Notes: generated from the letters alone by a model not told the origin. Shown: positions 41,888-59,242, counted from the first letter of the stretch. The stretch is 60,029 nt of DNA from Flavobacteriales bacterium (GCA_041745875.1 JBGTIB010000036.1:1-60029); one strand, 5' to 3'. Numbers and translations: made by a program.

Positions 41888-41960
41888 TGAGTTCATAGAT
41901 ACCTCCGGCACCGTCGACCCTCCGGGTCGACCTGCCAATACTGGATCACCGCCCACCCCC

Positions 41961-42935: not shown

Positions 42936-43220
42936 GCCGGCAATATTGGGCGCGGACCGGAAAGGTATAGGGCAGGTCATTGCGAGGCAGGAGGCAAAGG
43001 CCTCCAGCCACAATTGACGAAGCATGAAACAGCAGCCTAACGAGACCAATGCATGTCTGTGATCCGCTTACGACTTTGCGAAGAAATCGGTTGCCCAGCG
43101 CAGAACGGCCAGAGCACCTTCTACTTGATAGTTCAGTTTGGCGATGATCACCGATCACAGCACCGGGTATGCACGAGAAGTCGGTGCCGAGAATTTAAAT
43201 GGTCGCTGTGCTGTTGCACG

Positions 43221-44588
43221 TTATGGTCCAATGAAGCGCACAGCGCCAACATCGCCCACACGGATCAACAATATGCCTTGGGGCTGCGGCGGCAAATTAA
43301 AGCGCAAGCGATCGCCTTCAGCAACCACCTGTACTGCATGCACCAAACGGCCAGCTGCATCCAGCACCTCCACATTGTAACTCCCCGCAGGTACACCCAG
43401 CACCGCTACCTGATCATCCGCTTCGCGATAAGACCGCAGCGTTGAACGTGGAAGTTCCGTTCCGTCGTTAACCCCTACGGCCACTGAACAGGTATCCGAA
43501 TACACGCTACCGATGAAACGGACTGCGCAATTCACGGGTTGACCAAATAAGTTTACGTGGCAGCTTGCGAAAAGCGTGTCGTGAAAGAACTCGATGGTGT
43601 TGATCTCGGGCTCGGGGCCCATGGGCAGTCCACACCAACGCGCGCCATCCCAGTAAGCGATACCCGGGCAGGGTACGTTACCCGCATAACTGAATGTGCC
43701 GCAAGCCCACAACTTGCCATCATATACTTCAAGTTCACTTGCACCGACCAAATAGAGGTAGGTGCCATCCAGCCCTTGAAAGCCTGTACCCACCGAATAG
43801 AACTGTTGCCCATCCCACCGCATGATTCCATGGCCCGCGTTGCCCGCTGCTATCGGAATACTACCGCTCACATACAACCCGTCGTTGTACACTGCCAACG
43901 CACGCCCGGCACCAAAACCACCTTCGATGCCAGGACCCAAGGGAAGCCATTCGCCTGTACCTGAAAGGTACGCAATATCCTTTGGGTTTGGGGCCCCATA
44001 GCGGATGGTGCCGGTTGCATAGAGGGTGCCGTTCCACTCCGCCAAGTCCTGTATGTTAGGCGAGTTTATCACATTGAAGGTGCCGACAGGCTCCCAATGC
44101 CCGCTAACCCGCTTGGCGATGCCCTGGCAACTCTGGCCATCCACAACATCAAATGCGCCAATGGCGTAGAGGTTATCGCCAATAACCTTGAATCGATATA
44201 TCGAATTGTCAAAATCACCAAACGGCAGCCATTCGGCACCATCCAAGAATGCACATCGGCGTACCAATGGGTCGCCATTCCAATTTGAGAAGGGCCCTCC
44301 TGCTATCAAAGTGTCTCCCCACCGGGCCATGGTTTGCACGCGCCCCCCGAACACACCAAGCGTATCCCACTGTCCGTTGGTATAAACCGGTACCGCGCCA
44401 TCGCTGGCATCGAAATCATTGTTGAGAGAGGATTCGCCACAGAAGTATAATGCATCAGAAATCGTATCACTATGGATGTTGCCCATCTCGAAGATCCTGA
44501 AGGGCACCCCAGCAGATTCCCATTGCCCCAAGGCATTCATTACGGCAAATACCGTTATTAAAGCACAGTTTACCTGTCGCATCATCAT
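43221..44588 (-). CDS. T9SS-secreted beta-propeller-like repeat protein
   Basis: It has a signal peptide (MMMRQVNCALITVFAVMNALGQ) and repeated G.F....G....GIA.WDG..W motifs. The T9SS CTD reads YNVEVLDAAGRLVHAVQVV...GILLIRVGDVGAVRFIGP. It starts 4 nt after the stop of the upstream gene. Confidence 0.75.
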   Translation of the reverse strand: MMMRQVNCALITVFAVMNALGQWESAGVPFRIFEMGNIHSDTISDALYFCGESSLNNDFDASDGAVPVYTNGQWDTLGVFGGRVQTMARWGDTLIAGGPFSNWNGDPLVRRCAFLDGAEWLPFGDFDNSIYRFKVIGDNLYAIGAFDVVDGQSCQGIAKRVSGHWEPVGTFNVINSPNIQDLAEWNGTLYATGTIRYGAPNPKDIAYLSGTGEWLPLGPGIEGGFGAGRALAVYNDGLYVSGSIPIAAGNAGHGIMRWDGQQFYSVGTGFQGLDGTYLYLVGASELEVYDGKLWACGTFSYAGNVPCPGIAYWDGARWCGLPMGPEPEINTIEFFHDTLFASCHVNLFGQPVNCAVRFIGSVYSDTCSVAVGVNDGTELPRSTLRSYREADDQVAVLGVPAGSYNVEVLDAAGRLVHAVQVVAEGDRLRFNLPPQPQGILLIRVGDVGAVRFIGP

Positions 44589-44592
44589 GTTT

Positions 44593-47187
44593 CTATCGAA
44601 TCACAACAAACCGTGTAGCATAGGTGCCGACACGGAGCAGATAGGTACCCTCGGCCAAGTTTGGCAGGTTCAGGTTTAGACGGGTCCCATCACTACGGCC
44701 GATATCACTCACCACCAATCGCCCTGCGGCATCAACTACTTGCAATCCATATTGTCCGTTTGGAAGGTCGAAGATCGTAACTTGCTCTTGGGACCAATGT
44801 GCAAATAACTGCGCGACAGTGATGCCCCCTTCAGAAATTCCTACTTCGTTCAATGGCTCACCGCAGAGAGAAGCAATAAATCCTTCTGTTGAACCACCCT
44901 GCCATATCTCCTCAAAGTAAGGGCCACCGCCGCCATCATCTAATGGAAAGTAGCTAGCCGGATTATCTCCCTTACTTGTTATTCCTCCGAAATATAAATT
45001 ACCGTTGTCACTGCGGGGAAGTATGGTGTAGATTATTTCACGATTAATGGGTCCTGCCGCACTAGCCTCCCCCCCGAAGTAGGTGCCGTACAACAACTCA
45101 TTTGTAGGACTGAAAATTAACAAGATTGCATCCTGATGGCTAATCCATACAGTTCCAGGTATTTGGTTCACATATATCTGAGATTGTTGATATAAACCAG
45201 GGAGGGATTGGGACAAAAGACTAGGCCCTGCAGGCAATAGATCGTCGCCTTGTTTTACCCAACCACCAACGATCAACTTCCCATTTGAATCGAATTCGCA
45301 ACAAATCAAATAATTTGTGGTGCCTATGGCATCATAAATGTGCGTGTGCCAGATCCGGGAACGATCTATACCCGAAAACCGGGCTATGAACCCTGGATAA
45401 GTATTCGTCGAATTCGTATGCTGGTACCATCCTGTGCCTGGAACTAATCCAACGTTACTTCCTCCTCCACAAACACCGACCAGCACTATGTCATTTGTTG
45501 TTGGATCAACTGCAACGCCATTATGCAAACTCCAGTCAGAGACCTCAGTTCCGACATACGTGCTCCACAAAACGGCGCCATCGGTACTAAATTCATACAG
45601 AAAGCAATCAATTTCACCAAAAGGACCAGTGGAGTATGAAGCAGATTCAAATGGAATCAGATTAATGTCCGTACTTTCCGTGACCCCACCAACAACAATA
45701 CTCGCGCCCTTCGTGTCAACGTCATATGCAACGTCGCTTGCGTTCCCGGGTATATGGCAACGCCACATGTGGCGGTCACCGTTCCCGAACATCGAGATAA
45801 AGCCATCATTGTCGTTACTGTATGGCCAATACGTTGAACCAATTGGGGGAGGCACGTCCAGCGCAGGTATGGTGCTGATTGTGCTGCCCACGATGAATAT
45901 CTTATTCGGACCCAAACCCACCATGCCGTAGATGTAGGTGTTGTCATCCCCGTAGTAGGTGGACCACTGCCTTTCACCATTCCCTTTGTTCAGTCGTGCG
46001 ACAAACCCTTTATAGACTCCTGCATTAGCTGCGGTTTGATAGAACTCTGTTCCGGGCTGTAGATGGATCATGGAAGCAGAGCTCGTATTTCCCGCAATGT
46101 ACACTTGGCCTTCCACCTTGCGGCCAATCGCGGTACCACGCGTCAGTTCCCCAGCGGCCTGCCCGCCGAGGAATGTCTTCCACTCAATATCATCATCGGT
46201 ATTGAATCGCATCATGTATGCCGCTGTGCCGGCTGCGGAATAATTGGTGCCCGGCGCTTGCGGGAAGGTCATGAAACTGGACCCGGTGGTTCCAACTAGG
46301 TATAAATCGCCGCCCTCGACTTCCACGCTTTCGTATATGTGATCGTTCTCGTTCCCGCCCAAGTACGTGCTCCAGCACAAACCGGGTTCATCGTAGGAGG
46401 TAGGCCCGAAAGGCGGAATGCCAATCTGGAACACTAGGGGCCACGACGAGTTGTAGCTGTTCCAATTGAAGCCCACAACGCCAACTCCGTTGTTCACTTG
46501 GTAGTTTGCCTCCCAATTTACCGGAACGATAGACCCCAAGTCATTGATTTGATAAGCCTGTGCAAAGGGGATTACCATCCACTTGCCATCATAATAAAGT
46601 TTGAGGTTGCCCCACAGGTCTATAGCAATGCTATCCTGGCCTTCGAAGGCTAGCTTCAAATCACTCAGCACACAGCCAGGCCGCATCACGAACGCCATCT
46701 TTTGTCCTTTGCTACCGCTGTAGAAATGCTGATCGATATTAGGAAAAATGTTCTCGTAAATTATCCGGTTAAAACCGATCACCCCTTCCACGCCATTGTT
46801 GCCGCAATGCGCCATATAGAAATTCTGGAGCCAATCCTTCTGCGCCCAGCCGATGGGAGCCACCTGATTTGCGCGTGGGCCATAGGGTCGCATGTCCAAG
46901 CGATACAAAGTATCCACTGTGGCCACATTGGAATCCACAACTGCTACCGTAAAGGATACGCGCGACTTGTCCCTTAAATAAGCTTTCGGAAAACCACCTT
47001 CCGAATAGAACTTGATATCCTCTCTAGGCTGGTCATCGGTATCGATCACCTGGCCCATATTCTCCCAAAAGCCGATACTCCTCATGTAGGTTTCCCCGTA
47101 AAGGTCTGGGGGAACGTACTGGGTAAATGCCATTGCAGGTATCAAAGCCATCAGCGCTAGTATTGCGGGTGGGGAGTTTACTCTCAT
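44593..47187 (-). CDS. T9SS-secreted SBBP-type beta-propeller repeat protein
   Basis: It has a signal peptide (ILALMALIPAMAFTQ), an N-terminal FWENMGQ motif, and repeated STY(L/Y)GG...D..Y.. blocks. The T9SS CTD reads GQYGLQVVDAAGRLVV...GTYLLRVGTYATRFVVIR. It is more AT-rich than the core genes. Confidence 0.8.
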   Translation of the reverse strand: MRVNSPPAILALMALIPAMAFTQYVPPDLYGETYMRSIGFWENMGQVIDTDDQPREDIKFYSEGGFPKAYLRDKSRVSFTVAVVDSNVATVDTLYRLDMRPYGPRANQVAPIGWAQKDWLQNFYMAHCGNNGVEGVIGFNRIIYENIFPNIDQHFYSGSKGQKMAFVMRPGCVLSDLKLAFEGQDSIAIDLWGNLKLYYDGKWMVIPFAQAYQINDLGSIVPVNWEANYQVNNGVGVVGFNWNSYNSSWPLVFQIGIPPFGPTSYDEPGLCWSTYLGGNENDHIYESVEVEGGDLYLVGTTGSSFMTFPQAPGTNYSAAGTAAYMMRFNTDDDIEWKTFLGGQAAGELTRGTAIGRKVEGQVYIAGNTSSASMIHLQPGTEFYQTAANAGVYKGFVARLNKGNGERQWSTYYGDDNTYIYGMVGLGPNKIFIVGSTISTIPALDVPPPIGSTYWPYSNDNDGFISMFGNGDRHMWRCHIPGNASDVAYDVDTKGASIVVGGVTESTDINLIPFESASYSTGPFGEIDCFLYEFSTDGAVLWSTYVGTEVSDWSLHNGVAVDPTTNDIVLVGVCGGGSNVGLVPGTGWYQHTNSTNTYPGFIARFSGIDRSRIWHTHIYDAIGTTNYLICCEFDSNGKLIVGGWVKQGDDLLPAGPSLLSQSLPGLYQQSQIYVNQIPGTVWISHQDAILLIFSPTNELLYGTYFGGEASAAGPINREIIYTILPRSDNGNLYFGGITSKGDNPASYFPLDDGGGGPYFEEIWQGGSTEGFIASLCGEPLNEVGISEGGITVAQLFAHWSQEQVTIFDLPNGQYGLQVVDAAGRLVVSDIGRSDGTRLNLNLPNLAEGTYLLRVGTYATRFVVIR

Positions 47188-47481
47188 GGCGAGTTGTGTT
47201 GGGGATGATCGAAGATAGTTAGCAAACTAATGAAATTGCATGCGTTAGAGTTTCATGACGCAGGAGGGGGACCCTGCGGTCTCCCGGCCATCAGCTCGAC
47301 TTTATCATCTGCCAATGTAAGCATTGCAACTCTTGCAGATCTTACCACGGCATGCCCTAGACATCCAAGAACCCATACTCCAGCGGAAACGACCGAAACC
47401 CCAGAGCCCTATTTCGGGAGAGCACTGCGGAGGTTCTGAGCAAATGGAGACGCTCGCTGAACACGCTGCATAGGTCAATAA

Positions 47482-47568
47482 AGCACGGTTGTCCACTGCT
47501 TCGCCTACGATGTGTTGTGCTACCATGAGCTGACGCAACGAGTGGCGATGATGGAAGAGAATCACTGA
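47482..47568 (+). pseudogene. orphan 3' end (28 codons plus stop) of a second PhyH-family gene
   Basis: It translates to STVVHCFAYDVLCYHELTQRVAMMEENH*, against SMVIHCFADDVLCYHELTQRVAMMEDEH* at the end of CDS 41961..42935. In my hand alignment 23/28 aa and 71/87 nt are identical. A TAA at 47479-47481 lies immediately upstream in frame. Confidence 0.75.
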
Positions 47569-47610
47569 GCACTTCCATCTCGGGCACCCTTGTCACACTT
47601 CAAACAACAA

Positions 47611-47630
47611 CCCCCGCCTTCCGGCGGGGG
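47611..47630. terminator. GC-rich stem-loop between the phyH remnant and the convergent FN3 gene
   Basis: CCCCCGCC (47611-47618) pairs with GGCGGGGG (47623-47630) around a TTCC loop. Confidence 0.6.
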
Positions 47631-47675
47631 CTGCTGTTCATCAAGGCGCCGGCGATCGGCGCGTTGTTCTTCTAC

Positions 47676-48290
47676 CTACCCGATCAGCGTCCGCGCTGGG
47701 TCGCTGGCCGGGCTGGGCCCTGCGGCACCGATGGCCACCACCTGGTACCAGTAGAACCTGCCGGTGGCAAGGCCTTCGTCGGTGTAGGTCGCGCGGGTCA
47801 CCACGGCAATGGCTGCCCACGGGCTCTCTTCGCCGTCGTCCGGCTTGCGGCTCACGATGTACGAGTGTGCCCCGTACACGTAGTTCCACTTCACCAGGAC
47901 CTGGCCGCTGAATTCGGTCAGGCGCGCACGCAGGTTCTCCGGCATGCTCAGCAAGCCGATGCGTTCGGGCACCTTGCGCGCGTCGAAACCACTGCTGATG
48001 ATCACCGGGACATCACCGTTGGCCACGCTGGTCACATAACCAGCCTCCTGGGTGAGCAGTTCCATCAGCACGGCGGCCTTCATGTTCTTGTCCAACACGG
48101 CGGCAACTCCACCGCCCATGGCCAGCACATTCGCCGCCTCCAGCAAGCCGCGCGCTGTCGTTAGATCGGCAATGGCCGGTACCGGGGTGGCGAAGCTCGG
48201 GTTGCCCGTCATCTTCGTCTCCACCAGCAGCGACTTTGCGATCAGTTGGTTCACGGTGAGCTTGCTCACCCCTGCAACAACTTTCGACAT
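47676..48290 (-). CDS. hypothetical protein with a C-terminal fibronectin type III domain
   Basis: This is a 204-aa ATG ORF. The C-terminal ~90 aa (VLVKWNYVYGAHSYIVSRKP...YTDEGLATGRFYWYQVVAIGAAGPSPAS) fit FN3. No signal peptide was recognised. Confidence 0.65.
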   Translation of the reverse strand: MSKVVAGVSKLTVNQLIAKSLLVETKMTGNPSFATPVPAIADLTTARGLLEAANVLAMGGGVAAVLDKNMKAAVLMELLTQEAGYVTSVANGDVPVIISSGFDARKVPERIGLLSMPENLRARLTEFSGQVLVKWNYVYGAHSYIVSRKPDDGEESPWAAIAVVTRATYTDEGLATGRFYWYQVVAIGAAGPSPASDPARTLIG

Positions 48291-48631
48291 GGCTTTTGCT
48301 TTTTAGTGCGCACCTACCCCCCGGGCAGTCCGGGGGTGCAGTGCGCGTTCCTGTTTCCGTGTCACGCGGGCGCTGCCTGCACCGCGCTTGTTATCGGAAC
48401 GGTACGGCCGCTCGGAACGTACGTCCAGCAAGGAACACAGGCCTTCACAAGCCGGTTTTTGAGCACGAACTTCCGCGCCGTTCCCTTCGCCGTAACGGCC
48501 GTACCTGACGCACCCGCACACACTGCCCCCTTCCTCCCGACCATTCCTCGTTCAAACCGAGGAAAACACACGAACCTGGCCCGGGCCAGGCGCCCGGATG
48601 CATGGAAAATTGATGATCGCAACCCCTGATA

Positions 48632-48736
48632 GAGGGCCAAAGGCCCGGCACATACCAGCCCACGACGCAGTCGTGGGCGGACAAGCGATGCAAGCCCATT
48701 TTCCGGAGGGCCAAAGGCCCGGCACATCCAGCCCAC
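48632..48736. repeat. two direct copies of a ~31-nt REP-like element adjacent to the RAYT remnant
   Basis: GAGGGCCAAAGGCCCGGCACATACCAGCCCAC (48632-48663) and GAGGGCCAAAGGCCCGGCACATCCAGCCCAC (48706-48736) differ by one indel. The first copy continues into the hairpin GCCCACGAC-GCA-GTCGTGGGC (48658-48678). A 16-nt palindrome, CCTGGCCCGGGCCAGG, lies at 48575-48590. Confidence 0.65.
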
Positions 48737-48737
48737 C

Positions 48738-49010
48738 TCAGTCCCACATGTACCGCTCGTCGAATTCGATCCCGTGGTCCTTTAGGAGTTGACGGTACTC
48801 GTCCTGGAAACTGACGGTCCGGTGACGCTCCTCCTGGCCGTCGATGTAGTCCAGCAGGATGTCGAGGTCGTATGCGGACAGGGACGCATAGCCCCGCTGC
48901 CATGATATGTACGCATGGAGTTGCGCACGTAGCGGAGCCTTCAACCAAGGGTGGCGGAATTTGGTGCTGAACACGATGTGCAGTACCACTTGACTGAAGG
49001 ACTGAGGCAT
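48738..49010 (-). pseudogene. internally deleted REP-associated tyrosine transposase (RAYT, IS200/IS605 TnpA-like)
   Basis: The N-terminus MPQSFSQVVLHIVFSTKFRHPWL and C-terminus WQRGYASLS...DYIDGQEERHR...EFDERYMWD match the RAYT family ends. The product is only 90 aa, and the central segment that should carry the HUH motif is missing. Confidence 0.7.
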
Positions 49011-49219
49011 GGAATCATTTTCCTATTGATTGTTTCGAAGGACAAAATAAAGCGGAACTATATACTTGACACACCACGAAAACGAACTGATTTTCAGCCC
49101 TTTGTCCTGGTATTTTTCGTCTCGGCCTTACCCTTCGCAGCTTTCTTGCCCGGCACAGGGCGGCGTGAACGCCTTCCGCAACGCTTCCTCAAGCGTGTAA
49201 GGGTGCAGAGACAAAGAGC

Positions 49220-49702
49220 TTACGTTGTGCCCTTGAGCGTCGAAGTCTTCGGCTTTGGGGGCTTTCCTTTTTTTGGCCATGGCCGTTGCATGTATTGGAC
49301 TACTGACCCATAGAAGTTGCCCTCCAGGGCGGTAAGGGTTGCGTGTTCAATGTCTTCCCAATCGCCCAGCTTGCTTGCCCATCGACCATTCGGCAGTTGA
49401 CGCGCAACATGGGTAAAGCCTTCGCTATCCGCATAAATAGCAAGTCGCTCCATCGCAGCGGGGGTGCCCTCGCCTTCGGCTACCACGACAAAACCACCTT
49501 CCACTGCCAATGCGTGCATTACGTCCTTTACGTCGCAAGAACGGAACACGCCGTCGGGCCAGTAATATCCAGGGGCGGGATCGAACCATGTAGAATCATC
49601 ACCGACCGCCCAAGCAATGCAGTTGTATTCCTCAGTCTGGATACTGGTAACCCGGTGGTTCGATTCGTCCAGCGCGGGAAACTTTGTTTGAAATCTGCTC
49701 AC
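49220..49702 (-). CDS. hypothetical protein with a conserved YNCIAW...THVA Cys/His signature (possible papain-fold enzyme)
   Basis: This 160-aa ORF has a GTG start overlapping the upstream stop (GTGA at 49699-49702). Recognised motifs are EEYNCIAWAVGD and EGFTHVARQLPNGRWASKLG, with a K/P-rich tail. Confidence 0.5.
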   Translation of the reverse strand: MSRFQTKFPALDESNHRVTSIQTEEYNCIAWAVGDDSTWFDPAPGYYWPDGVFRSCDVKDVMHALAVEGGFVVVAEGEGTPAAMERLAIYADSEGFTHVARQLPNGRWASKLGDWEDIEHATLTALEGNFYGSVVQYMQRPWPKKGKPPKPKTSTLKGTT

Positions 49703-50631
49703 GATTTGTGGCCTTGTTCATAAGCCCAATCTATCCAGGCGCGGGCCATATCTTTGATCTTGCCTCGCTTTTTCGGAGGCACCGGATCGGCACCAGTCAG
49801 CAGGTTCAGGGCTGCGAACCAATGGTCGGGCTCCTTTTCAAGCTCTTCAATGATAAAAGGGACCGCATCGGCGCCCATTCGAATGATTTCCTTATAGGCG
49901 GGATGCTTCGCCATCTGAGCCACAGAGGACGAGGGTTCGCGTTCGGCTTTCCAGCGGATTGAAAGCGTCCGGAAACGCTCACGTAGTGATGGTGAGGAGG
50001 GTTGCAATTCCCAAAGTTCAGACAGACGTTCGCGGAAGTTACGCAAACGCTCCTCAATGCTGGTGGATATAGGAAGGTCGGTTGGCGGGGGCGAAACGCG
50101 GACCCGCTTCAACCGTCCACCTGTTGCCATGCGCCCATAGTTGAAGCGCCATCGCTGGTCGTTAATCTGACCAACGAACCAATTTAGTTCGGAAAGACTC
50201 ATCCCGAACTTGGGCAATAGCACACGAACGGCGCTCCCTCCATTGCCACGAGCACAGAAGCGCCACGGCTGGATATAAGCTTGCCCGAATGCCGTGACAG
50301 TCACGCAAGGCGTGTCGTAAATCTCCGCTTCAGAGGGTTGAATGAAGGCAACAATTCCGTTGTAGTTGTCCCCACTGGACACATACGGAATACTGCCACC
50401 TGCGTAATTCTTACTGCCCGCAGAAGCGCCGTTCCCGATATCGAACCAATCGGCCAGGAGGGTACGTGCCAAAGGTCGCGTTCGCTTCTTTCCCTCGCCT
50501 AGCTTGTCCTCAAAATCCAGGATCAACTCATCTGTAATCTCGGGTGAATTGGCTACAGTAAGCGACAACTGCCGAACAGAATCGCGACGATGGCGCTCGA
50601 ACTCCGCCATACCGAAATGAGCACTCGGCAA
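49699..50631 (-). CDS. HsdS-like target-recognition domain fused in frame to a HPAY...HWF helical domain; probably the expressed tail of a decayed RM gene
   Basis: The TRD-like block reads LADWFDIGNGASAGSKNYAGGSIPYVSSGDNYNGIV...AVRVLLPKFGMSLSELNWFVGQI...LKRVRVSPPP. The C-terminal domain reads RFRTLSIRWKAE...MAKHPAYKEIIRMGADAVPFIIEELEKEPDHWFAALNLLTGADP. The ORF starts only at TTG, and the frame stays open for 87 more codons upstream. Confidence 0.5.
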   Translation of the reverse strand: MPSAHFGMAEFERHRRDSVRQLSLTVANSPEITDELILDFEDKLGEGKKRTRPLARTLLADWFDIGNGASAGSKNYAGGSIPYVSSGDNYNGIVAFIQPSEAEIYDTPCVTVTAFGQAYIQPWRFCARGNGGSAVRVLLPKFGMSLSELNWFVGQINDQRWRFNYGRMATGGRLKRVRVSPPPTDLPISTSIEERLRNFRERLSELWELQPSSPSLRERFRTLSIRWKAEREPSSSVAQMAKHPAYKEIIRMGADAVPFIIEELEKEPDHWFAALNLLTGADPVPPKKRGKIKDMARAWIDWAYEQGHKS

Positions 50632-51006
50632 CCATTGCTCCGCACAGATTTCGGTTCCATCGGTAATGAAGCGACGCTCGACAACGCAAGCAAGATTCGG
50701 AACCGGATCAACTGTCCCATCCCGAAGGAAGTTTTCATAGAGGCTCTTAACAGCCTCCAGCTGGCTTCCTTCGATCGGTACACGGCGTTTCTTGCTGATC
50801 TCAAAGCCATCATTCTCAATACGCGCCAGGAAGGTTCCCCGGTCCTTGTTAGGCGTGTGTGCCTTGCCACAAACCTCCGTACCATCGAAGGTTTATCGTA
50901 CTACGGACAACCGACAACTGGCTTCTACATCTCTGGCGCTGGTCATGCGGGCGCTGTCCTGTTGCTTCACGTACTTGTTGAGGACGGCGGTTTGGAAGAG
51001 GGGCAT
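50632..51006 (-). pseudogene. fragmentary DNA methyltransferase: N-terminal 25 codons, an in-frame TAA, then an HsdM-like C-terminal segment
   Basis: From ATG 51006 the sequence MPLFQTAVLNKYVKQQDSARM resembles the N-terminus of Eco57I-like type IIG enzymes. A TAA lies at 50893-50895. The same frame then continues TFDG...DRGTFLARIENDGFEISKKRRVPIEGSQLEAVKSLYENF, which resembles the end of N6-adenine MTase domains, and runs without a stop or start codon into ORF 49699..50631. The catalytic MTase core is absent. Confidence 0.55.
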
Positions 51007-51272
51007 GGAGGCGAACCGCTTGTCGCGGGAGGGTGAAACTATGGTGAATGGGAACAAGGGCAACGCGCGAGGCGTTGGGCCATGAGGCACAGACGCGTAG
51101 GAATGCTGGGCAAAGTAGCGAACAGCAGCGACAATAAATGGCGCCTTAGAAAGCGTGGTAAAATGATAGTTCGGTACCCATTAAAGATTACGGGCATATC
51201 GCGTAAAAAGCATGCCTTTCACTACACATTCATGAATTCATATATTCGTCGTCCATACCAACACTCAAAGCC

Positions 51273-51881
51273 ATGAAATATTTCCGGTGGTCCATCGTGG
51301 GCGTTTTGATCGTGCTCACCATTCCATGTAGTGCCCAGCTATTGGGAAGAGGAGGAAAAACCAACGCAAAAGCACGAAGTGGCGTGATCAGGATGAAGCA
51401 GTTCAATGATACGCTTGGGACATACTTCTGGAGCCACTTCGACGCTACAAAACGCTCAAGCTTGAACTTCATTGATCGAAAGGGGAATGTAAGAGTACTC
51501 GCCGAAGTCCAACCGGATGCTGCTCTTGAACGGGTCACCGACCTGGTAGCAAGCGCCGAATGGGAGGGCGTGAGTGCTGAGACCAAAGTGACGGTTGCTA
51601 CTACCATGGCCGAACTTGGTCAGCGAACGGCTCCAGTGAATATGCTTCGCGATGGACTTTACCGAATTGCCGAATTGCGGTACAATGACCCAGAGGGATA
51701 CTCCCCGGAAGTGGTTGAACGCATGATGATAGCCCTGTTCGCCATGGTCCAAGCCATCGCCATTGACAAGGTTCCTGCGCCTGTAAATGAAACGACTACT
51801 ACACCGTCTACGGACGCTGTAGTAGTCAAGGAAACGAAGATCGGGGAATCTACCATTCCACCATCCACGCCAAAGAACTAG
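51273..51881 (+). CDS. hypothetical secreted protein (202 aa)
   Basis: It has a signal peptide (MKYFRWSIVGVLIVLTIPCSAQ). It is the only plus-strand gene inside the RM wreckage. No family was recognised. Confidence 0.5.
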   Translation: MKYFRWSIVGVLIVLTIPCSAQLLGRGGKTNAKARSGVIRMKQFNDTLGTYFWSHFDATKRSSLNFIDRKGNVRVLAEVQPDAALERVTDLVASAEWEGVSAETKVTVATTMAELGQRTAPVNMLRDGLYRIAELRYNDPEGYSPEVVERMMIALFAMVQAIAIDKVPAPVNETTTTPSTDAVVVKETKIGESTIPPSTPKN

Positions 51882-52213
51882 TACAGCCAATAAAGTTTGA
51901 CCGCTGCTTCAGGGATAGGGGCAGCGGTCATCTGAGACGCGCTTCGCAAATATCCTAGGTTCCCCTTCTGCGCTGGGAGACACTGAGGTTTTGGACGCCT
52001 GGGTGTTGAAGATGTCAGGTCGGTGGTGTCCATGCCCTTCAGCTCCACCACGGCGATGGCATTGCCGTCCTTCAGCACGGCGCCATCGGCCTTCCTGCTG
52101 CCCTTCTCGTTCTTGAACTCGCTGGTCAGCTCGTAGCCCAACACGCCCACGAAGTAGGCTGCTTGATCTATCACTAAGGCGAGTATAAGAATACTGAAGG
52201 CTGGGTGAATCAT
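51878..52213 (-). pseudogene. fragment of the PD-(D/E)xK nuclease region of an Eco57I-like type IIG restriction-modification enzyme
   Basis: FVGVLGYELTSEFKNEKGSRKADGAVLKDGNAIAVVELKGMDTTDL matches the conserved N-terminal nuclease block (D...ExK) of that family as I recall it. The sequence before and after it is not protein-like, and the ORF is only 111 aa. Confidence 0.5.
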
Positions 52214-52288
52214 CGAATCACTCCCTTCAACTTAATAGCCTCAGATAGTCGGGCTGCCTTGTGACTCAAGCTTGAGCTTTTGATCTGA

Positions 52289-54727
52289 TTATTTCCGGCT
52301 CATCCGTTTCCCGCGCTGCGCAATCTCCATCCCGCGCGCAACCTTTATCTCAGTTTCCATGATCAATTTCATATACCGTTCCTCCAGTTCATCTCGCTCT
52401 TCCGCTCTCTTCCGACAAATCTCACAAAGTCGCTTAGCCTCCTTTAAATCCTCAAGTGGGTCCCGCCCCTTCAGCAACCCCCTCCTTATTGTCGTGGTAG
52501 CGATCATATGAAGCACTACTGCGTTCGTGTGCATGAATTCCGGATACTGTTCGAACGCGTCCTTGCCGAGTTGCGCCTTTAATTCCCCCACATATCGCCA
52601 AGCCTCGGCCAGTTCCTTCTGCGCGCCCTCTCCTTTGGCCATCTCCGCCAATGCACAAGCCAATGTGTTCCATATCGATGCCCGGCATTGCGCTATCTGC
52701 TTCTGCACTTCACTCGTACGAACCTGCTCGATTTCTAACTCCTTATAGAGAACTAAAGCCATCCGACCATCATCGATGCACGGTTTTAGGCTCTTCCGTA
52801 CCGAGGGCTGCCTCATATGTTTCGCCCATCGTGCAACGCATCTACCATGATAGAAGCGAGGATCTTTCGGAGCGACCTTCAAGCCGTCATTTGCCCAGCC
52901 AATAGACAGTTCATCCTCTCCAAGTCTCCTTGCCACCCAACAAGCCAAGTACAAATACTCAACGTTCTTTGTCTTACTCGCTTTGATCAGTACTTTCAAT
53001 CTGTCATATATTTTATGTTCTACTTCTTCCCATTCCTCCTCGTGTGGAAAAAGGAAAAGCACCAATATTCTCAATATTTCCTGATGGTGGTCACCATCTC
53101 CATCAGCGAAGATGTACTCTAAGAAATCACGTAGCCGACTTAGCAGATTGTCCGAATCTATTCTTCCCGAACCAGGCTTAGTGTATAGATCGGTTATGCG
53201 CTCAATCAAGGAGCGAATCCTTTGCTCCTTGAACATAAAAAGTATGGGCAATCGATGCCATACGCCCATAATTCCATCCTTGGGCCCCGTTGTTGACTTC
53301 AATACCACGTTCCCCGATACGAGTCGGTGCACAGCACTCGCCAGCATCGTTACATAGTTCGAATCAAATATGAACTCATTGAACTTGGCTCTGTATCGAT
53401 TTCCAAAATCCCTAGCTCGTGCTTGTTTCAGTAGCTCACTCAACTGTTCAATTAGTTCCTTCTTGGCACTCGATACATCTGTGCCAATGGGTCCCGCTTT
53501 GAGCATCTTTATCGCTCCATTGATTTTTTCTTGTATTGTATTCACATGCTCAAGAAGCGCATGACCGACAAAATCTGCACGACACTCATTCAACCAGCTC
53601 CTAACTTGTTTATCGCTATCTGCTAAACTCGCATTTACTGCTATGTTGAAGTCCATGGAACCCATACTTCGGCTAAGCTGCTCAAGGTCATCGTCGCTTT
53701 GGCGTAAGGCAATCTTCTTGGCTTGCTTGCTTGTCCTTTCAGTTGAACCATCACGTATCATACGCTCCAGCAAGAGTTCTGATACCCTTCGGAATGGATT
53801 GGTCTCCGGCGTCAGTTTATAAATCTCAATCGCCTTGTCTTCTAACACTTCAGACTTCGATGGGGTCGATGACAATATGAGAAACCGAATCTTAAGGTCG
53901 GGTCGCTCCCTTGCCAATGCTGCATTGAAGTTGATTACAAGGTCGGCGGCCTTGCAATCCACGGCCAAATTCATTCGGGCACGAATATTCTGTATGTTGA
54001 TTCGGCGCCCTGCTCTCTCTCTAAGATCCGTTGCACGACTACTCGGACTACACGTCTCTATTATTGAACGGATATCCCCTAGTTCATCGAAAACCTTGTC
54101 ATCGATTCTGACCACAAGCTTATCCTTGAGGAGATACTCCAGTCGCTCTGCCCCTATCTTAAGAACCGAGTTCGCCATCATCAAGAGATACGGCGTCTGC
54201 TTACCCAACTCCTCTAGCACATGCGCGTTACCCTCCGCACCTGGCTCATCCATAGCCCTAAGTAGATCTTCAACCACCCGAATAGAGGTAAATCCTTGCC
54301 GTCGCAAACTGTGCAGGAAGTCTTGAAAGCGGCTGTATTCGCCGCTATATTCATCCAATAGGAATAAACGCCGCGAAGGTGTGCTTAATAGCAACATGTA
54401 TGTCGATTGCGCCTCCTGCGTCGCTCTCAGCCCGAAACGGTGAATTAAACCTTCACGCGCCTCCTTCTCATCATAGCCCATGGGCCCAATGCGCTGGCTG
54501 CCTAGTTTCAGAGGCAAGCAATACTCCTCGAGGTCATATGTATCGATGAAGTAATGGAATTTATAGCCTTGGGCCTCTAAATTCAATTGCGCCTCTAGCT
54601 TCCTGCGTGCCGATTCAATTCGGCCACCACGTAAATCCTCGAGCAGTCCGAGTCGCGGATCACTTTCACTTGCGTGCCCCAGTACTTCCTCAACCATCTG
54701 CGCGTGCGGGTTCCTCGTTGAGGACAT
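52289..54727 (-). CDS. unknown-function protein C of a three-gene operon (~812 aa): N-terminal alpha/beta region plus C-terminal helical-repeat (TPR-like) region
   Basis: This long ORF is AT-richer than the core genome. Its start (ATG 54727 or ATG 54697) overlaps the end of gene B by 38 or 8 nt. I found no Walker A, HUH, HNH, TIR or SIR2 motif by eye. The N-terminus contains FHYFIDTYDLEEY, and the C-terminal ~450 aa are helical repeats. Confidence 0.75.
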   Translation of the reverse strand: MSSTRNPHAQMVEEVLGHASESDPRLGLLEDLRGGRIESARRKLEAQLNLEAQGYKFHYFIDTYDLEEYCLPLKLGSQRIGPMGYDEKEAREGLIHRFGLRATQEAQSTYMLLLSTPSRRLFLLDEYSGEYSRFQDFLHSLRRQGFTSIRVVEDLLRAMDEPGAEGNAHVLEELGKQTPYLLMMANSVLKIGAERLEYLLKDKLVVRIDDKVFDELGDIRSIIETCSPSSRATDLRERAGRRINIQNIRARMNLAVDCKAADLVINFNAALARERPDLKIRFLILSSTPSKSEVLEDKAIEIYKLTPETNPFRRVSELLLERMIRDGSTERTSKQAKKIALRQSDDDLEQLSRSMGSMDFNIAVNASLADSDKQVRSWLNECRADFVGHALLEHVNTIQEKINGAIKMLKAGPIGTDVSSAKKELIEQLSELLKQARARDFGNRYRAKFNEFIFDSNYVTMLASAVHRLVSGNVVLKSTTGPKDGIMGVWHRLPILFMFKEQRIRSLIERITDLYTKPGSGRIDSDNLLSRLRDFLEYIFADGDGDHHQEILRILVLFLFPHEEEWEEVEHKIYDRLKVLIKASKTKNVEYLYLACWVARRLGEDELSIGWANDGLKVAPKDPRFYHGRCVARWAKHMRQPSVRKSLKPCIDDGRMALVLYKELEIEQVRTSEVQKQIAQCRASIWNTLACALAEMAKGEGAQKELAEAWRYVGELKAQLGKDAFEQYPEFMHTNAVVLHMIATTTIRRGLLKGRDPLEDLKEAKRLCEICRKRAEERDELEERYMKLIMETEIKVARGMEIAQRGKRMSRK

Positions 54728-55841
54728 CAAAAGCCAACTGCTCTCCTTCAGTCCCTTTACTCAGTTTTCCGTACAGCATTTCCGCAATAGGAATGTGCTC
54801 CAAAGCTGAAATGCGCCAGTCAATGCAACCGTTCAGAGCCATCTCGTCGTATTCCTTTGCATAGCGCATAGCTTGTGACTTCTCATCAGGCACCCTCAAT
54901 CTAACCATCTGCATGTTGTAATCGTATTCATGGAACTTGCTTATCGCCAGCAATACGTGGCCAAAATGCTCTTGCATTTCGCCATCTTCAACCAATTCCG
55001 ACATCCAACTTGCGGGAAGTGGTGCGCGGGTCTTACCCACCAAGTATGCAATCAATGCTCTGGCATATCTGTCATTGCGCAATAGGTTATCCCTGAAATA
55101 ATCCGAACTTAATAAGACCTCCCCTAGCCTGGACTGCAAGTTCAGCACGGTTGGGGTCGGGTCCGCATACCTAGTCCAATAGTGCAACATCTTGAGCATA
55201 CTCCCTTGATCCATGGAAAAAACTTCCAACTGTTCAGCAAGCGCTTCGTCGAAGGCCTTCATCTCATTCGGTCCCTTTTCGATAATTCTTGCTTGATGGC
55301 AGATATAAGAGTCCATGAAATTTGAGAACGCAGACCAGCCTGCTTTCAACACGTAATCCAGCGCCTCCCGAAAAAATGCCGCATTCATTTCCGGAACCAT
55401 TGACTGCAATAGTGCTGGAATGTCATCTACTATCCTACCCCGTGGCAAACGCGCAAGCGCACGCAGAGTCAATTGTGCGATGTGGTCGTTCGTCCATTTT
55501 CGACTCATTCGTTTGGAGAACGCTATATACATTCTATCCATTGCTCCCCATCGTGGCCGGATATCTGCGATTGCGGTCAACAATACATTCTGCTCATACT
55601 CGCCCTCTCCTTCATCGTCGCAACCGCTCAGATATCTGCCAATCAAAGCCTCTTGGAAGTCCTTTCGCTTCCATTCAAGTCCCAATCGAACTAGCTCCCT
55701 ATCAATCGCTTCAAGCCGTGCCGCATCTGTCTCATAGAAGTGGTCAAAAATGAACGTCGGCTCAATACCACGGACGATTCTATCAATCTCATTGAACCAC
55801 GCGTCGTGATCAGCAATCTTGGCGAATTCCTTCAGGGTCAT
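54690..55841 (-). CDS. unknown-function protein B of a three-gene operon (383 aa, predicted all-helical)
   Basis: Its ATG at 55841 overlaps the gene A stop (ATGA at 55838-55841). No motif was recognised. Confidence 0.75.
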   Translation of the reverse strand: MTLKEFAKIADHDAWFNEIDRIVRGIEPTFIFDHFYETDAARLEAIDRELVRLGLEWKRKDFQEALIGRYLSGCDDEGEGEYEQNVLLTAIADIRPRWGAMDRMYIAFSKRMSRKWTNDHIAQLTLRALARLPRGRIVDDIPALLQSMVPEMNAAFFREALDYVLKAGWSAFSNFMDSYICHQARIIEKGPNEMKAFDEALAEQLEVFSMDQGSMLKMLHYWTRYADPTPTVLNLQSRLGEVLLSSDYFRDNLLRNDRYARALIAYLVGKTRAPLPASWMSELVEDGEMQEHFGHVLLAISKFHEYDYNMQMVRLRVPDEKSQAMRYAKEYDEMALNGCIDWRISALEHIPIAEMLYGKLSKGTEGEQLAFDVLNEEPARADG

Positions 55842-56857
55842 GTTGCCACTGTTTGTTTTAAACGTTTATATCCATCGTTACTCACACTTTCCCAGTCTCT
55901 CTCTATCGCAGTGAGTACCATTGGTCGCGTTGCACTATATGTCCTTCCATTCTTCTCGATCGGGAGATGGATATACTCATCCAGGCTCGTCACCGCACAA
56001 TCCCTATGTGTAGGTCTAGTTCGCCCACAATGTGGAAGTTGCATAGACGATAGGAAGTAATTGCGCTCACTCCTTCGCCATGATCTATGGATTGCCGTGG
56101 GCTTAGTAACCTCTGTCACGTGTTTATAGTCCAAGCGCACAAATTGGGTCATCGGCTCCCATGCCAATCCTAAACTTTGGACGATAAAATTTTCAAATGC
56201 TCCGCAAGTGTCTGGATAGCGCGTGTATTCACCTTCCAACCGATTCAATTCATTCGCGGTGGTTACCCATACATTCCATCGCCACTTGGGGCCCTTACCA
56301 CTGGTCTTCAGATTCGCCAGCGTTCCATTTGCGTAAAGACGCTCTAGTTCCCGTGTGTCACCTAAACTGATTTTGTGGCCCGCGTCGCGAAGTGTGTATT
56401 CCCGAAATGTGTTCATCGTCACCATGCGCACCAACCCAGTCTGGTTGCTAAACGTGCCACATAACGGGCAGCCCATGCCATAGTGCGGGGTGTACGCCTG
56501 CAACCACTCCTCATAGGCCATCATCACATTGTCCGTGTCGCTGTTAAATATCTGCTCCACCACGGAAGCATAGACACTTGCCGGAACCGCATTTCCTTCA
56601 AGATCGATTGCTAAGCAAGACAGCCATTGATGCACCATGAGTTCTCCAGCGGCTCTTCCTTCGTACCACTTCAGAAACTCAGACACGTCCGTGTGTGGAT
56701 CCATGAACGGACTACAGTGTTTCCAAATAATATCGATTGTCTCTCGCAATTGCTCTGGTGCCATGATGACATGTTGTTTGGGCGGGGGGTTTAATATAGT
56801 CACCCGCACCCAATCATCGCTCGCATGGCCCAATGTCATTGGCAATTGAATCCCCAT
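55838..56857 (-). CDS. unknown-function protein A of a three-gene operon (339 aa) with CxxC and a Cys...His pair
   Basis: It is the first gene of the operon and has a ~490-nt upstream non-coding region. It has a CxxC motif (GCPLCG, C130/C133), DTCGAFENFIVQSLG (C218), AIHRSW (H257), and HCGRTRPTHRDC (C277/H284/C287). Confidence 0.75.
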   Translation of the reverse strand: MGIQLPMTLGHASDDWVRVTILNPPPKQHVIMAPEQLRETIDIIWKHCSPFMDPHTDVSEFLKWYEGRAAGELMVHQWLSCLAIDLEGNAVPASVYASVVEQIFNSDTDNVMMAYEEWLQAYTPHYGMGCPLCGTFSNQTGLVRMVTMNTFREYTLRDAGHKISLGDTRELERLYANGTLANLKTSGKGPKWRWNVWVTTANELNRLEGEYTRYPDTCGAFENFIVQSLGLAWEPMTQFVRLDYKHVTEVTKPTAIHRSWRRSERNYFLSSMQLPHCGRTRPTHRDCAVTSLDEYIHLPIEKNGRTYSATRPMVLTAIERDWESVSNDGYKRLKQTVAT

Positions 56858-57351
56858 TTTGGTTCTCCCAAGGGTCTTGTTGCAGAAACAAATACGAATC
56901 TGAACGACTCAAGGTTCCCATCGAAATTGCCTCCTGTCGCAATCGTGACTGCATGATAGCTATGGGGTGATAAGGAACTCAACCTATGAGTCTTCATGGT
57001 TAACAGCAGCGTCGATGGAACACGTAAACCGCAAGGGCCAAAATATATACTTGCCTCGCTTGTACGCTCCGGCACCAACTTGTCTTTTCATAGTTCCGCT
57101 GTTGAGAACCTTACTACTTGTTTTGGGTCTCTCACTCAAACGCCAATAACGGTTCGTATCGTGCAAATGGACCCTGGGTTCGGAGCCGCGTTCAAGTCCG
57201 CACTGCACGCGGTCTGTGGCTTCCTGGAACAAGCAGCGAGCATCCCCAGCGCCGCATACCTCCTCCCCTTTTCCCGACCTTCGCGCCCCCATCGCCTTCG
57301 CCTGTCCTTCGCGGTGCTTCTGCCAACGAGGCGGGCTATGGCGAGCAAAGC

Positions 57352-59238
57352 ATGAACGTCCTTTCCGTCGAACGCCTCGCCAAAAGCTATGGTCCACGCC
57401 AGCTCTTCAAGGACCTCAGTTTCGGGCTGGAGAAGGGCCAGAAGACCGCCATCGTGGCGCGCAACGGCAGCGGCAAGAGCACCCTGCTGAAGTGCATCGC
57501 GGGGCTGGAGACCGCGGACGAGGGCATCGTCACCTTCAACAAGGGCATCCGCGTGGGCTACCTGGACCAGAGCGTGCAGATGAACGCCACCCACAGCCTG
57601 GTGGATGAGATGCTGGACCGCGACGACCCCATCACCGCCGCGATCCGCGACTACGAGCATGCCGTGGCGAAGGGACTGGACGGCAAGGCGATGCAGCAGG
57701 CCTTGGACCGCATGGAGGAACTGCAGGCCTGGGACCACGAGGCCCGCGTGGTGAGCATGCTGCACCGCTTCGGGCTGCGCGACATGGAACAGCCGGTGAA
57801 CACCCTGAGCGGCGGCCAGCAGAAACGCCTGGCCATGGCCAAGGTGCTGATCGACCTGCCCGATGTGCTGATCCTGGACGAGCCCACCAACCACCTCGAT
57901 GTCCATATGATCGAGCAGTTGGAGGAGGAACTGGGCACCCCCGGCATGACGCTGCTGCTGGTGACCCACGACCGCTATTTCCTGGACAATGTGTGCGACG
58001 AGATCATCGAGATCGAGTTCGGCGTGCTCACGCGCTACAAGGGCAACTACAGCTACTACGTGGAGAAGAAGGCCCTGGCCGACGAGGTGCGCGACGCCAC
58101 ACAGCACCACCTCCAAGGCTTGATGAAGCGCGAACTGGAGTGGGTGCGCCGCATGCCACGCGCACGGGGCACCAAGAGCAAGAGCCGCCTCGATGCCTTC
58201 GACAAGATCAAGGCCGATGCAGGCCGGCGCTACGACCGCGAACAGGTGAAGCTGGAGGTGAAGACCGACCGCCTCGGCGGCAAAGTGATCGAAGCGCGCA
58301 ACCTCACCATGGGTTTCGGCGACCCGGCGGACAAGGAACGCTACAAGCCGATCGTATCACACTTCAACTACTCCCTGAAGAAGGGCGACCGCATCGGTAT
58401 CGTGGGTCCCAACGGCATCGGCAAGAGCACCTTCCTGGAACTGCTGATCAAACGCCAGGAGCCGGACATGGGCAAGGTCACCATCGGGGACACGGTGGTG
58501 CTGGGCATCTTTGATCAGCAGCGCCTGCAGTTCAAGGAGGACCAACGGATCCTGGAGGTGGTGCGCGACATCGCCGAGGTGATCCCGCTGAACAAGGGAA
58601 AGTCGATGAACGCCTCACAATTGCTGGAGCGCTTCCTCTTCGACAAGGAACAGCAGTACCAGTACGTGAGCACGCTGAGCGGCGGTGAACTGCGCAGGCT
58701 GCAGCTGTGCACGGTGCTGATGAAGAACCCCAACGTGCTCATCCTCGACGAGCCGACCAACGACCTGGACATCCCCACGCTGAACGCCCTGGAGGATTTC
58801 CTCTCGGACCTCGATGTCTGCCTGCTCATCGTGAGCCACGACCGTTTCTTCATGGACAAGCTGTGTACGAAGCTGCTGGTATTCGAGGGTGAAGGGCTGA
58901 TCAAGGAATGGGTGGGCAGCTATTCGGACCTTCGGGAGAAACAACGCATCAGTGCAAAGCAGCCGACACCCCGCAAGGAGGAGCCTGTTGCAGCACCACC
59001 ACCACCCAAGGCCGACAAGGCGAAGAAGCTCACCTATGCCGAGCGCCTGGAACTGGATCGGATCGACAAGGAGATGCCCGCCTTGGAGAAACGCAAGGCG
59101 GAACTGCTCGCCGAACTGGCCAAGGGAGGCACCGACCACCACGTGATGATGGAGCGCTCCATCGCACTGGACCGCATCGTGGCCGACCTGGACCGCCTGA
59201 CCGACCGGTGGTTGGTGTTGAGCGAGAAGAACGGGTAG
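57352..59238 (+). CDS. ABC-F family ATPase (two ABC domains, C-terminal coiled coil; Uup-like)
   Basis: It has Walker A motifs (ARNGSGKST and GPNGIGKST), signature motifs (LSGGQQKRL and LSGGELRRL), and a K/E-rich coiled-coil tail. I placed the start at ATG 57352 (MNVLSVERLAKSYG). Confidence 0.9.
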   Translation: MNVLSVERLAKSYGPRQLFKDLSFGLEKGQKTAIVARNGSGKSTLLKCIAGLETADEGIVTFNKGIRVGYLDQSVQMNATHSLVDEMLDRDDPITAAIRDYEHAVAKGLDGKAMQQALDRMEELQAWDHEARVVSMLHRFGLRDMEQPVNTLSGGQQKRLAMAKVLIDLPDVLILDEPTNHLDVHMIEQLEEELGTPGMTLLLVTHDRYFLDNVCDEIIEIEFGVLTRYKGNYSYYVEKKALADEVRDATQHHLQGLMKRELEWVRRMPRARGTKSKSRLDAFDKIKADAGRRYDREQVKLEVKTDRLGGKVIEARNLTMGFGDPADKERYKPIVSHFNYSLKKGDRIGIVGPNGIGKSTFLELLIKRQEPDMGKVTIGDTVVLGIFDQQRLQFKEDQRILEVVRDIAEVIPLNKGKSMNASQLLERFLFDKEQQYQYVSTLSGGELRRLQLCTVLMKNPNVLILDEPTNDLDIPTLNALEDFLSDLDVCLLIVSHDRFFMDKLCTKLLVFEGEGLIKEWVGSYSDLREKQRISAKQPTPRKEEPVAAPPPPKADKAKKLTYAERLELDRIDKEMPALEKRKAELLAELAKGGTDHHVMMERSIALDRIVADLDRLTDRWLVLSEKNG

Positions 59239-59242
59239 TGCG

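Follow-up and report, generated by a model that had tools for sequence, protein, structure and literature searches.

A stretch of 60,029 nucleotides (nt) from a Flavobacteriales bacterium (GCA_041745875.1 JBGTIB010000036.1:1-60029), here called the window, carries on its minus strand three adjoining genes that we named A, B and C. Comparative evidence indicates that this trio is one horizontally acquired operon and that it belongs to a recurrent, unnamed operon family found in several bacterial lineages. We consider A-B-C a credible candidate for an anti-phage or anti-mobile-element conflict or defence system; the defence function is one that we infer, and we lean towards it slightly more than away from it. 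The trio would then represent a defence-island operon whose core is an enzyme-TPR protein, whose partners can be exchanged and whose protein families are unrecognised. Provided that it does defend against phages, the system would consist wholly of families unrecognised by Pfam, NCBIfam, PADLOC and the PDB.

A scan for open reading frames (ORFs) placed the three overlapping, co-directional genes exactly where a preliminary description of this DNA had put them (Table 1). The A/B junction is an ATGA at 55841..55838 on the minus strand, and B overlaps C by 8 nt if C starts at 54697, which is the public gene call of 802 amino acids (aa), or by 38 nt in the longer form of C. When the region was shuffled 200 times, the longest stop-free run had a mean of 139 and a maximum of 249 codons. 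The real ORFs of 339, 383 and 812 codons far exceed any of these runs and we therefore regard the trio as real genes. Most members of the A family, which are 299–342 aa long, lack the 31 residues with which A begins; the annotated start possibly lies 5’ of the true one, and a start at M32 would fit the family length better. The GC content of the operon is 0.486 compared to 0.592 for positions 1-42935 and 0.610 for 57352-60029, and at third codon positions the trio has 0.53 while host genes have 0.78–0.83. The low-GC composition had been claimed from spot counts of single 60-nt lines, which we could reproduce exactly (25/60 at 53041, 40/60 at 8041), and the return to high GC reported upstream of the trio appears as a rise from 0.46 to 0.62 across about 57.0–57.3 kb in 300-nt windows. 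About 190 nt 5’ of the A ATG lies a near-consensus Bacteroidota -7 element (TAnnTTT), a candidate promoter. Upstream regions in other trio loci measure 270–670 nt and are free of a conserved small ORF; a fourth small gene 5’ of A was considered and rejected, as the small ORFs are unrelated between loci.

The proteins had been described as unrecognisable, and this held in all searches against described families. A, B and C gave no match at E<=1 to Pfam, PADLOC or NCBIfam and nothing significant against PHROGs, where the matches were at chance level, or against PDB sequences. No PADLOC-DB v2.0.0 model matched the window proteins, 50 members of the C family or 18 A-like and B-like proteins, and no profile assigned any of the three to a housekeeping function. 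For A, B and C, a word-indexed search across 5.8 billion clusters yielded the self matches alone, and an exact-sequence look-up of A showed no record of it. When 1.84 billion representatives were scanned exhaustively with C in HMMER, the reading of C as an orphan was overturned: 204 clusters were found at E<=1e-3 and 66 at E<=1e-10, many of them matching end to end with 21–27% identity and lengths of 725–800 aa. The members are labelled ‘hypothetical protein’ in the source records. A metagenome scan with a narrower alignment yielded six loci. Word-indexed searches had thus made all three proteins look like orphans, and only the exhaustive profile search exposed the family. In the literature we found no paper naming this trio; an earlier computational mention of the C family may exist.

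We examined the surroundings of C-family genes in 13 independent contexts. Ten of these have A-like and B-like genes immediately 5’ of C on the same strand, overlapping or abutting, with intergenic distances of -29 to +20 nt. Co-occurrence of homologues as a trio, on which the proposal of a novel system had been made to hinge, is therefore the common arrangement. The lengths of A/B/C are 339/383/802-812 aa in the window, 302/396/754 aa in L080, 336/409/756 aa in JGI 3300047160, 308/371/791 aa in L081, 323/365/790 aa in L083, 299/373/725 aa in L085, 322/402/753 aa in L093, 304/370/768 aa in L098, 299/382/776 aa in L100 and 342/372/780 aa in L086.

Other contexts depart from this order. In L082, two genes come before C: one encodes a 133-aa protein with three transmembrane (TM)-like segments, the other a B-like protein of 242 aa that has a TM helix at its N-terminus and is detected by the B profile at E=9e-14. 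Just 5’ of these lie ThsB-ThsB-caspase-like protease genes, a complete type IV Thoeris system in the composition defined in 10.64898/2025.12.03.692087. In L092 a 271-aa TIR_2 protein stands directly 5’ of C in place of A and B, and an Mrr-type nuclease (Mrr_cat) is encoded downstream. In L095–97, C occurs alone beside a TCAD9-containing cluster. On account of these variants we regard C as the constant core, B as usually retained and the A slot as exchangeable.

Recognised defence genes recur around the family. Type I restriction-modification (RM), Thoeris IV, dCTPase, Mrr, TCAD9 or a type IIG fragment is present within 10 kb in about 6–7 of the 13 contexts. One trio context has an integrase and type I hsdRSM genes in this range, and L083 (also L084) has a dCTP-deaminase defence gene (PADLOC dCTPase, 7e-123), a ubiquitin-like conjugation cluster and a type I S subunit. 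Further trio neighbours within 10 kb are a weak PycTM match, a reverse transcriptase, perhaps of a group II intron, and a region resembling an integrative and conjugative element (ICE); a DDE transposase is the sole recognised neighbour in L085. The GC content of the trio is below that of its flanks in all nine loci with DNA. The variable-island setting put forward earlier is borne out by these loci, which adjoin defence genes, integrases and transposases, and by the window itself, where the trio sits in a 14.4-kb lineage-specific insertion.

The tight overlap and translational coupling of the genes, the low GC of the trio everywhere, the integrases, the transposase and the ICE-like region nearby and the location of the window locus at an integration hotspot would also suit an addiction or toxin-antitoxin-like module that stabilises integrative elements. 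C or A would then be the toxin and B, as an unstable partner that evolves fast, the antidote, and the main role would be maintenance and not phage defence. We give this alternative a small chance. A, B and C are far larger than typical toxin-antitoxin pairs and no DNA-binding antitoxin-like domain was detected in them, while the occurrence of C without B in L092 and L095 is hard to square with B as an essential antidote. Toxin-antitoxin and defence roles may also coexist.

We modelled C with AlphaFold2 using a 90-sequence alignment (mean predicted local distance difference test score (pLDDT) 82, predicted template modelling score 0.82). The N-terminal part of the model folds as an alpha/beta domain interrupted by a helical insert, and the remainder of C is an alpha-solenoid. 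Residue numbers refer to the 802-aa form and conservation to 135 family sequences. In the N-terminal domain (N-domain) the conserved positions are D52 (99%), D/E55 (87%), P62 (100%), E120 (100%), D247 (94%), N258 (99%), S/T276 (91%) and R303 (90%). A strand at 46–51 ends at D52, a helix from 115 carries E120, a helix at 238–264 carries D247 and N258, a strand at 270–275 is followed by S276, and a strand at 302–303 includes R303. A second cluster is located in the solenoid and comprises Y583, W587, R590, R591, D612, R614, F615, H617, Y651, N677, E720 and T724, all conserved to at least 93%. D52, P62, E120, N258, R590 and R614, which are invariant or nearly so, are all present in the window protein; it departs at one highly conserved position, N725, where 83% of members have E. 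The preliminary description had predicted TPR-like repeats at the C-terminus, and three lines of evidence agree with this: the solenoid model, Pfam TPR matches (TPR_14/TPR_2) in 7 of 50 C-family members, and Foldseek comparison of the model with the PDB and BFVD, which gave TPR-type solenoids and nothing else, such as Tom71, TTC7B, Ctr9, CNOT10, Ski3, APC subunits and IFIT1/5, with probabilities of up to 0.99. No match of the whole model to PDB or BFVD reached E<=1e-3; the comparison was dominated by the solenoid and left the N-domain uncovered.

In RNA metabolism, too, TPR solenoids are found together with nuclease-like domains, and Ski3, CNOT10, Ctr9 and IFIT among the Foldseek matches would suit a non-conflict cellular role, for instance in a complex for RNA processing or regulation that uses a TPR scaffold and is carried on mobile DNA. 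Several loci (L080, L100) with housekeeping neighbours alone point the same way. Such a role nevertheless seems quite improbable in view of the patchy distribution of the trio, which the PhyH/ABC-F loci of 79 related genomes lack, its foreign composition, the partner swaps with TIR and membrane proteins and the recurrence of known defence systems nearby.

For the N-domain, the order of an Asp at a strand end, a Glu at the start of the helix after the next strand, a helix with DxxAIDR and a strand ending in Ser/Thr is one which we take to recall PIN/NYN motifs. The conserved acidic positions D52, D/E55, E120 and D247 are located at strand ends or helix starts, and the model alternates strands and helices. 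C shares with PIN/NYN domains, such as VapC toxins and DS-3 and DS-5 of DefensePredictor (PMC13092281), the Asp that ends the first strand (hhhDxxD/E), but differs by its 100-residue helical insert. Judged from the order of these residues, a PIN-like N-domain is plausible but unproven.

The closest architectural likeness of C is to the Tpr-core proteins BcTpr and ThsI. BcTpr of Bacillus cereus has 415 aa and combines a MilB-like N-glycosidase with a TPR domain (10.1101/2023.05.26.542521); ThsI, the effector of type VIII Thoeris, combines a CMP hydrolase with a TPR domain (10.64898/2025.12.03.692087). Both the BcTir/Tpr system and type VIII Thoeris have recently been validated. Enzyme-TPR proteins with exchangeable TIR, caspase, TM or unknown partners are validated or predicted immune proteins (10.1101/2023.05.26.542521; 10.64898/2025.12.03.692087). 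Like BcTir/BcTpr and ThsI, C joins an N-terminal alpha/beta domain of enzymatic type to a C-terminal TPR part in one protein, occurs alone or beside exchangeable TIR, TM or unidentified partners in defence islands, and goes without a nucleoside triphosphatase (NTPase). In contrast to BcTpr, C has about 750–800 aa. The MilB or nucleoside-deoxyribosyltransferase-like signature of ThsI and BcTpr was not found in 50 full-length members or 20 N-domains compared with Pfam, and the pattern of conserved residues is another one. The usual partners of C are the unrelated A and B, whereas a TIR partner occurs in 1 of 13 contexts and not in the window operon. On size, Pfam content and conserved motifs, C cannot be shown to belong with ThsI and BcTpr.

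These precedents raise the main mechanistic alternative, a Thoeris-like signal relay, in which C would be purely an effector and its TPR pocket the receptor for a small nucleotide-derived second messenger. A together with B would be a novel module that produces this signal upon infection, in the place that TIR holds in L092. The Arg/His/Tyr/Trp cluster, conserved to at least 93% over 135 very divergent sequences, is typical of a fixed ligand pocket. The TIR protein directly 5’ of C in L092 would agree with a relay, and the solitary C of L095–97 parallels the cases in which the Tpr core of BcTpr stands alone. Burroughs and Aravind reportedly predicted in 2020 that the TPR of the Tpr core senses NAD+-derived signals. 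ThsI and BcTpr are precedents, with a TPR-enzyme fusion as the presumed receptor of an ADP-ribose-derived signal (10.64898/2025.12.03.692087; 10.1101/2023.05.26.542521). We nonetheless regard the relay as rather unlikely. A showed no similarity to TIR, nucleotidyltransferase, cyclase or any nucleotide-processing family, the A slot in L082 is filled by a small membrane protein whose appearance is that of an effector and not of a signal generator, and C has no MilB or CMP-hydrolase match and is twice the size of ThsI and BcTpr. A bolder version would be a new class of immune signalling, where an infection-triggered A-B enzyme of unseen fold makes or unmasks a ligand that the invariant Arg/His/aromatic pocket of a new TPR receptor in C reads, switching on a new hydrolase, and where TIR can substitute, linking the system to Thoeris-type signalling. 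This we hold to be improbable.

Avs/AVAST and other STAND-TPR sensors resemble C in being large proteins of defence islands in which an effector-like domain at the N-terminus is combined with a TPR solenoid at the C-terminus. They differ in two respects: C has no NTPase domain, and its TPR is the most conserved part of the protein and not the most variable. The Walker A pattern G....GK[ST], reported missing in the trio before, indeed did not occur in 135 C, 9 A or 9 B sequences. Pfam searches with the window proteins and 50 members of the C family gave no NTPase match either. PADLOC candidates (PDC-S/PDC-M) and named multi-gene systems are likewise multi-gene operons, of unknown function, near defence genes, but none of their models matches the trio.

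Returning to the trio as a defence operon, we propose that C is an autoinhibited sensor-effector core protein. The acidic/polar site of its N-domain would be the catalytic output, with a metal-dependent PIN/NYN-like nuclease as the most likely activity, and the invariant Arg/His/Tyr/Trp cluster of the solenoid would form a fixed binding pocket that receives activation. As the TPR surface is highly conserved, we favour a fixed ligand for C, which might be a conserved element of a partner or a small molecule. B may be the adaptor or sensing partner of C, a role suggested by its tight coupling to C and its fast evolution, A would fill the exchangeable partner slot, and no NTPase would be involved. 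The proposed conflict system would probably act by abortive infection. The assignment of sensing to particular proteins, the direction in which the signal travels and the nuclease chemistry are parts of the chain that we infer; the particular chain with sensing in B or A-B and output in the C N-domain is offered as a tentative possibility. The design that comparison suggests, with two separate conserved sites in C, an exchangeable slot that A, a membrane protein or TIR can occupy, and B as the adaptor that evolves fast, would reproduce the logic of an enzyme with a TPR receptor using unrelated parts, and could show how such modules assemble repeatedly.

Several observations weigh against this proposal. 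The strongly conserved TPR surface speaks against the idea that C itself recognises variable phage proteins, for which reason sensing was placed in B or A-B, and the sensing step is the weakest part of the model. At the N-domain, the earlier suggestion of a PIN-like start of C stands in so far as FIDTYD is the best-conserved N-terminal motif, with D52 at 99%, but it found no support from Pfam, PDB or Foldseek: 20 isolated N-domains gave no PIN-clan match in Pfam at E<=10, the domain profile matched nothing in the PDB, and neither PIN nor another fold was matched in Pfam, PDB sequences or the whole-model Foldseek search, which the solenoid dominated. C also has Ser/Thr where PIN domains have a fourth acidic residue. 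A showed no identifiable catalytic signature, and its single-sequence AlphaFold2 model was unusable (pLDDT 34). Enrichment of defence genes near the C family is suggestive and not statistical, with 13 contexts and no background rate, and neither in L080 nor in L100 was a defence or mobility gene recognised in the 10 kb around the operon. Three scans of viral contigs did not detect the family, nor was it found in phage and plasmid records, where tblastn with A, C and P0017 gave no match. Finally, the type IIG gene downstream of C is dead, so that the island may be decaying. The flanking Y1 transposase is a fragment as well, and one could take the operon for non-functional cargo left in a degrading island. 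We consider this very improbable, because the three reading frames are intact and very long, the overlapping start/stop arrangement is kept, and nearly all family-invariant residues are present in the A and C of the window, N725 of C being the one departure; all conserved A and C residues are otherwise still intact.

A detects its L080 counterpart in BLASTP at E=3e-10. An alignment of nine positional homologues shows C81, I84, W197, G230, W260, L269, S270, G278, E294 and R332 to be invariant and yields the family motif W...EGLYLSY..D..GRTR...ER[VI]H. A gave no Pfam, PDB or PADLOC match, and its profile likewise found nothing in the PDB. A papain- or transglutaminase-like cysteine peptidase had been suspected from C218 and H257, together with a CxxC at C130/C133. 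All four residues exist in the window protein, but C218 and H257 are not conserved among the nine members and CxxC is found in three of them, so the idea had to be given up; C81, the sole invariant Cys of the family, has no invariant His partner. Two other assignments were rejected. An ADP-ribosyltransferase (R-S-E) reading, derived from the order R...LS[YS]...E, fails on a Ser-to-Glu spacing of 24 residues, which is too short, and a PD-(D/E)xK reading of ‘EGLYLSYK’ fails as Glu and Lys are not conserved.

Positional homologues of B are 365–409 aa long, 13–16% identical and share only M1 and W15 as invariant residues. By this comparison B is the fastest-evolving member of the trio, with a homology that is weak but detectable by profile. 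B and its profile gave no PDB or PADLOC match. When the C N-domain, A, B and the TIR proteins were compared with one another in local hhalign, no relationship emerged.

The operon lies in an island that separates two genes which are neighbours in related genomes (Table 1). The ABC-F gene flanking it has its best relatives at 83–89% protein identity and marks the host as an uncultured high-GC Flavobacteriales bacterium. The distance between PhyH and ABC-F is 12–950 bp in 27 of 29 related genomes having both genes and 14.4 kb here. When the island ORFs were compared with 79 related loci (1.27 Mb, tblastn), none matched at the PhyH/ABC-F site; the sole match in those loci was a 24%-identity fn3 located elsewhere in L019. 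The only island DNA with a blastn counterpart in relatives is 47480-47572, where the 3’ end of PhyH is present a second time. The two copies are 4.6 kb apart and bracket the first of two sub-islands, the second of which holds the trio. The island is thus a mosaic of at least two parts inserted at a hotspot: the relatives L009 (4808-10000) and L070 (5738-10000) carry different inserts of 4–5 kb at the same junction, without A, B or C homologues, and in L070 the PhyH 3’ end is likewise duplicated (5657-5734, 7752-7824) next to the 4.3-kb insert of this genome. It appears that in these Flavobacteriales the 3’ end of the PhyH gene repeatedly serves as an att-like site of integration.

Table 1. Position of the trio, its parts and the surrounding features in the window.
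Feature	Position	Strand	Details
Gene A	55838..56857	-	339 aa from first ATG
Alternative start of A	56764	-	M32, ATG; gives 308 aa
Gene B	54690..55841	-	383 aa; start overlaps A stop (ATGA)
Gene C	52289..54730	-	813 aa from TTG 54730; 812 aa from ATG 54727; 802 aa from ATG 54697
N-terminal alpha/beta domain of C	53753..54616	-	Residues 28-315, helical insert 136-235 (AlphaFold2)
Most conserved part of TPR-like solenoid of C	52478..53017	-	Residues 561-740, pLDDT 90-98
Upstream non-coding region of A	56858..57351	-	494 nt; putative, presumed promoter/regulatory region
Lineage-specific insertion	42936..57351	.	14.4 kb; between PhyH stop codon (42935) and ABC-F start codon (57352)
PhyH-family gene	41613-42935		Flanks island
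Sub-island 1	42938-47481		Boundary is the PhyH 3’ copy
Sub-island 1 cargo	43224-47187	-	Two low-GC genes: 864 aa (DUF7948, below-cutoff type IX secretion system (T9SS) sorting tail), 455 aa (weak beta-propeller)
Second copy of PhyH 3’ end	47482..47570	+	Last 89 nt of PhyH (42849-42937, stop codon included); 82% identity, repeat family D1
Sub-island 2	47571-57351		Holds the trio
fn3-like ORF	47676-48290		204 aa; third-position GC 0.83
Acido-Lenti-1 RNA (Rfam)	48633-48677	-	42.1 bits, gathering score 37
Y1/IS200-like transposase fragment	48741-49010		Weak match
DUF7689 protein	49223-49702	-	E=3.5e-35; 4-nt overlap with 310-aa ORF
310-aa ORF	49702-50631	-	Weak type II specificity-subunit match, E=0.03
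Type IIG restriction-methylase fragment	51881..52213	-	PADLOC REase_MTase_IIG E=6.4e-11, profile positions 71-113 of 1066; 75 nt downstream of C

Downstream of the trio, the remains of RM genes mentioned in the preliminary description could be confirmed in part: one type IIG fragment is clear (E=6e-11), whereas the other ORF gave a weak match (E=0.03). The latter, the 310-aa ORF, could form together with the DUF7689 gene another two-gene cargo module of the island. The cargo of sub-island 1 resembles secreted or surface proteins rather than defence genes. Positions 47571-48800 have a host-like high GC content (0.61–0.66) inside the low-GC insertion and no DNA counterpart in related loci. Perfect 22-nt direct repeats at 48632-48653 and 48706-48727 overlap the Acido-Lenti-1 match and adjoin the Y1/IS200-like fragment. 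The match may be a repetitive extragenic palindromic (REP)-like element or a transposon-associated RNA and not a free-standing small RNA.

Two gene clusters in other C-family loci were also noted. In L083 (7506-13385), adjoining the trio, two Multi_ubiq genes, a 640-aa deaminase, BubE, a ThiF-type E1, a helix-turn-helix-peptidase S24 regulator and a type I S subunit are compactly grouped and make up a ubiquitin-like conjugation system joined to a nucleotide-depletion defence island. In L095 (13041-22241; also L096 and L097) C is followed by a 1450-aa FIST/GAF protein, a 407-aa protein, a sigma-54 activator AAA+ protein and a TCAD9-domain protein, a cluster that resembles the ‘ternary’ NTP-dependent conflict systems of Kaur et al. 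2020 (PMC7159879).

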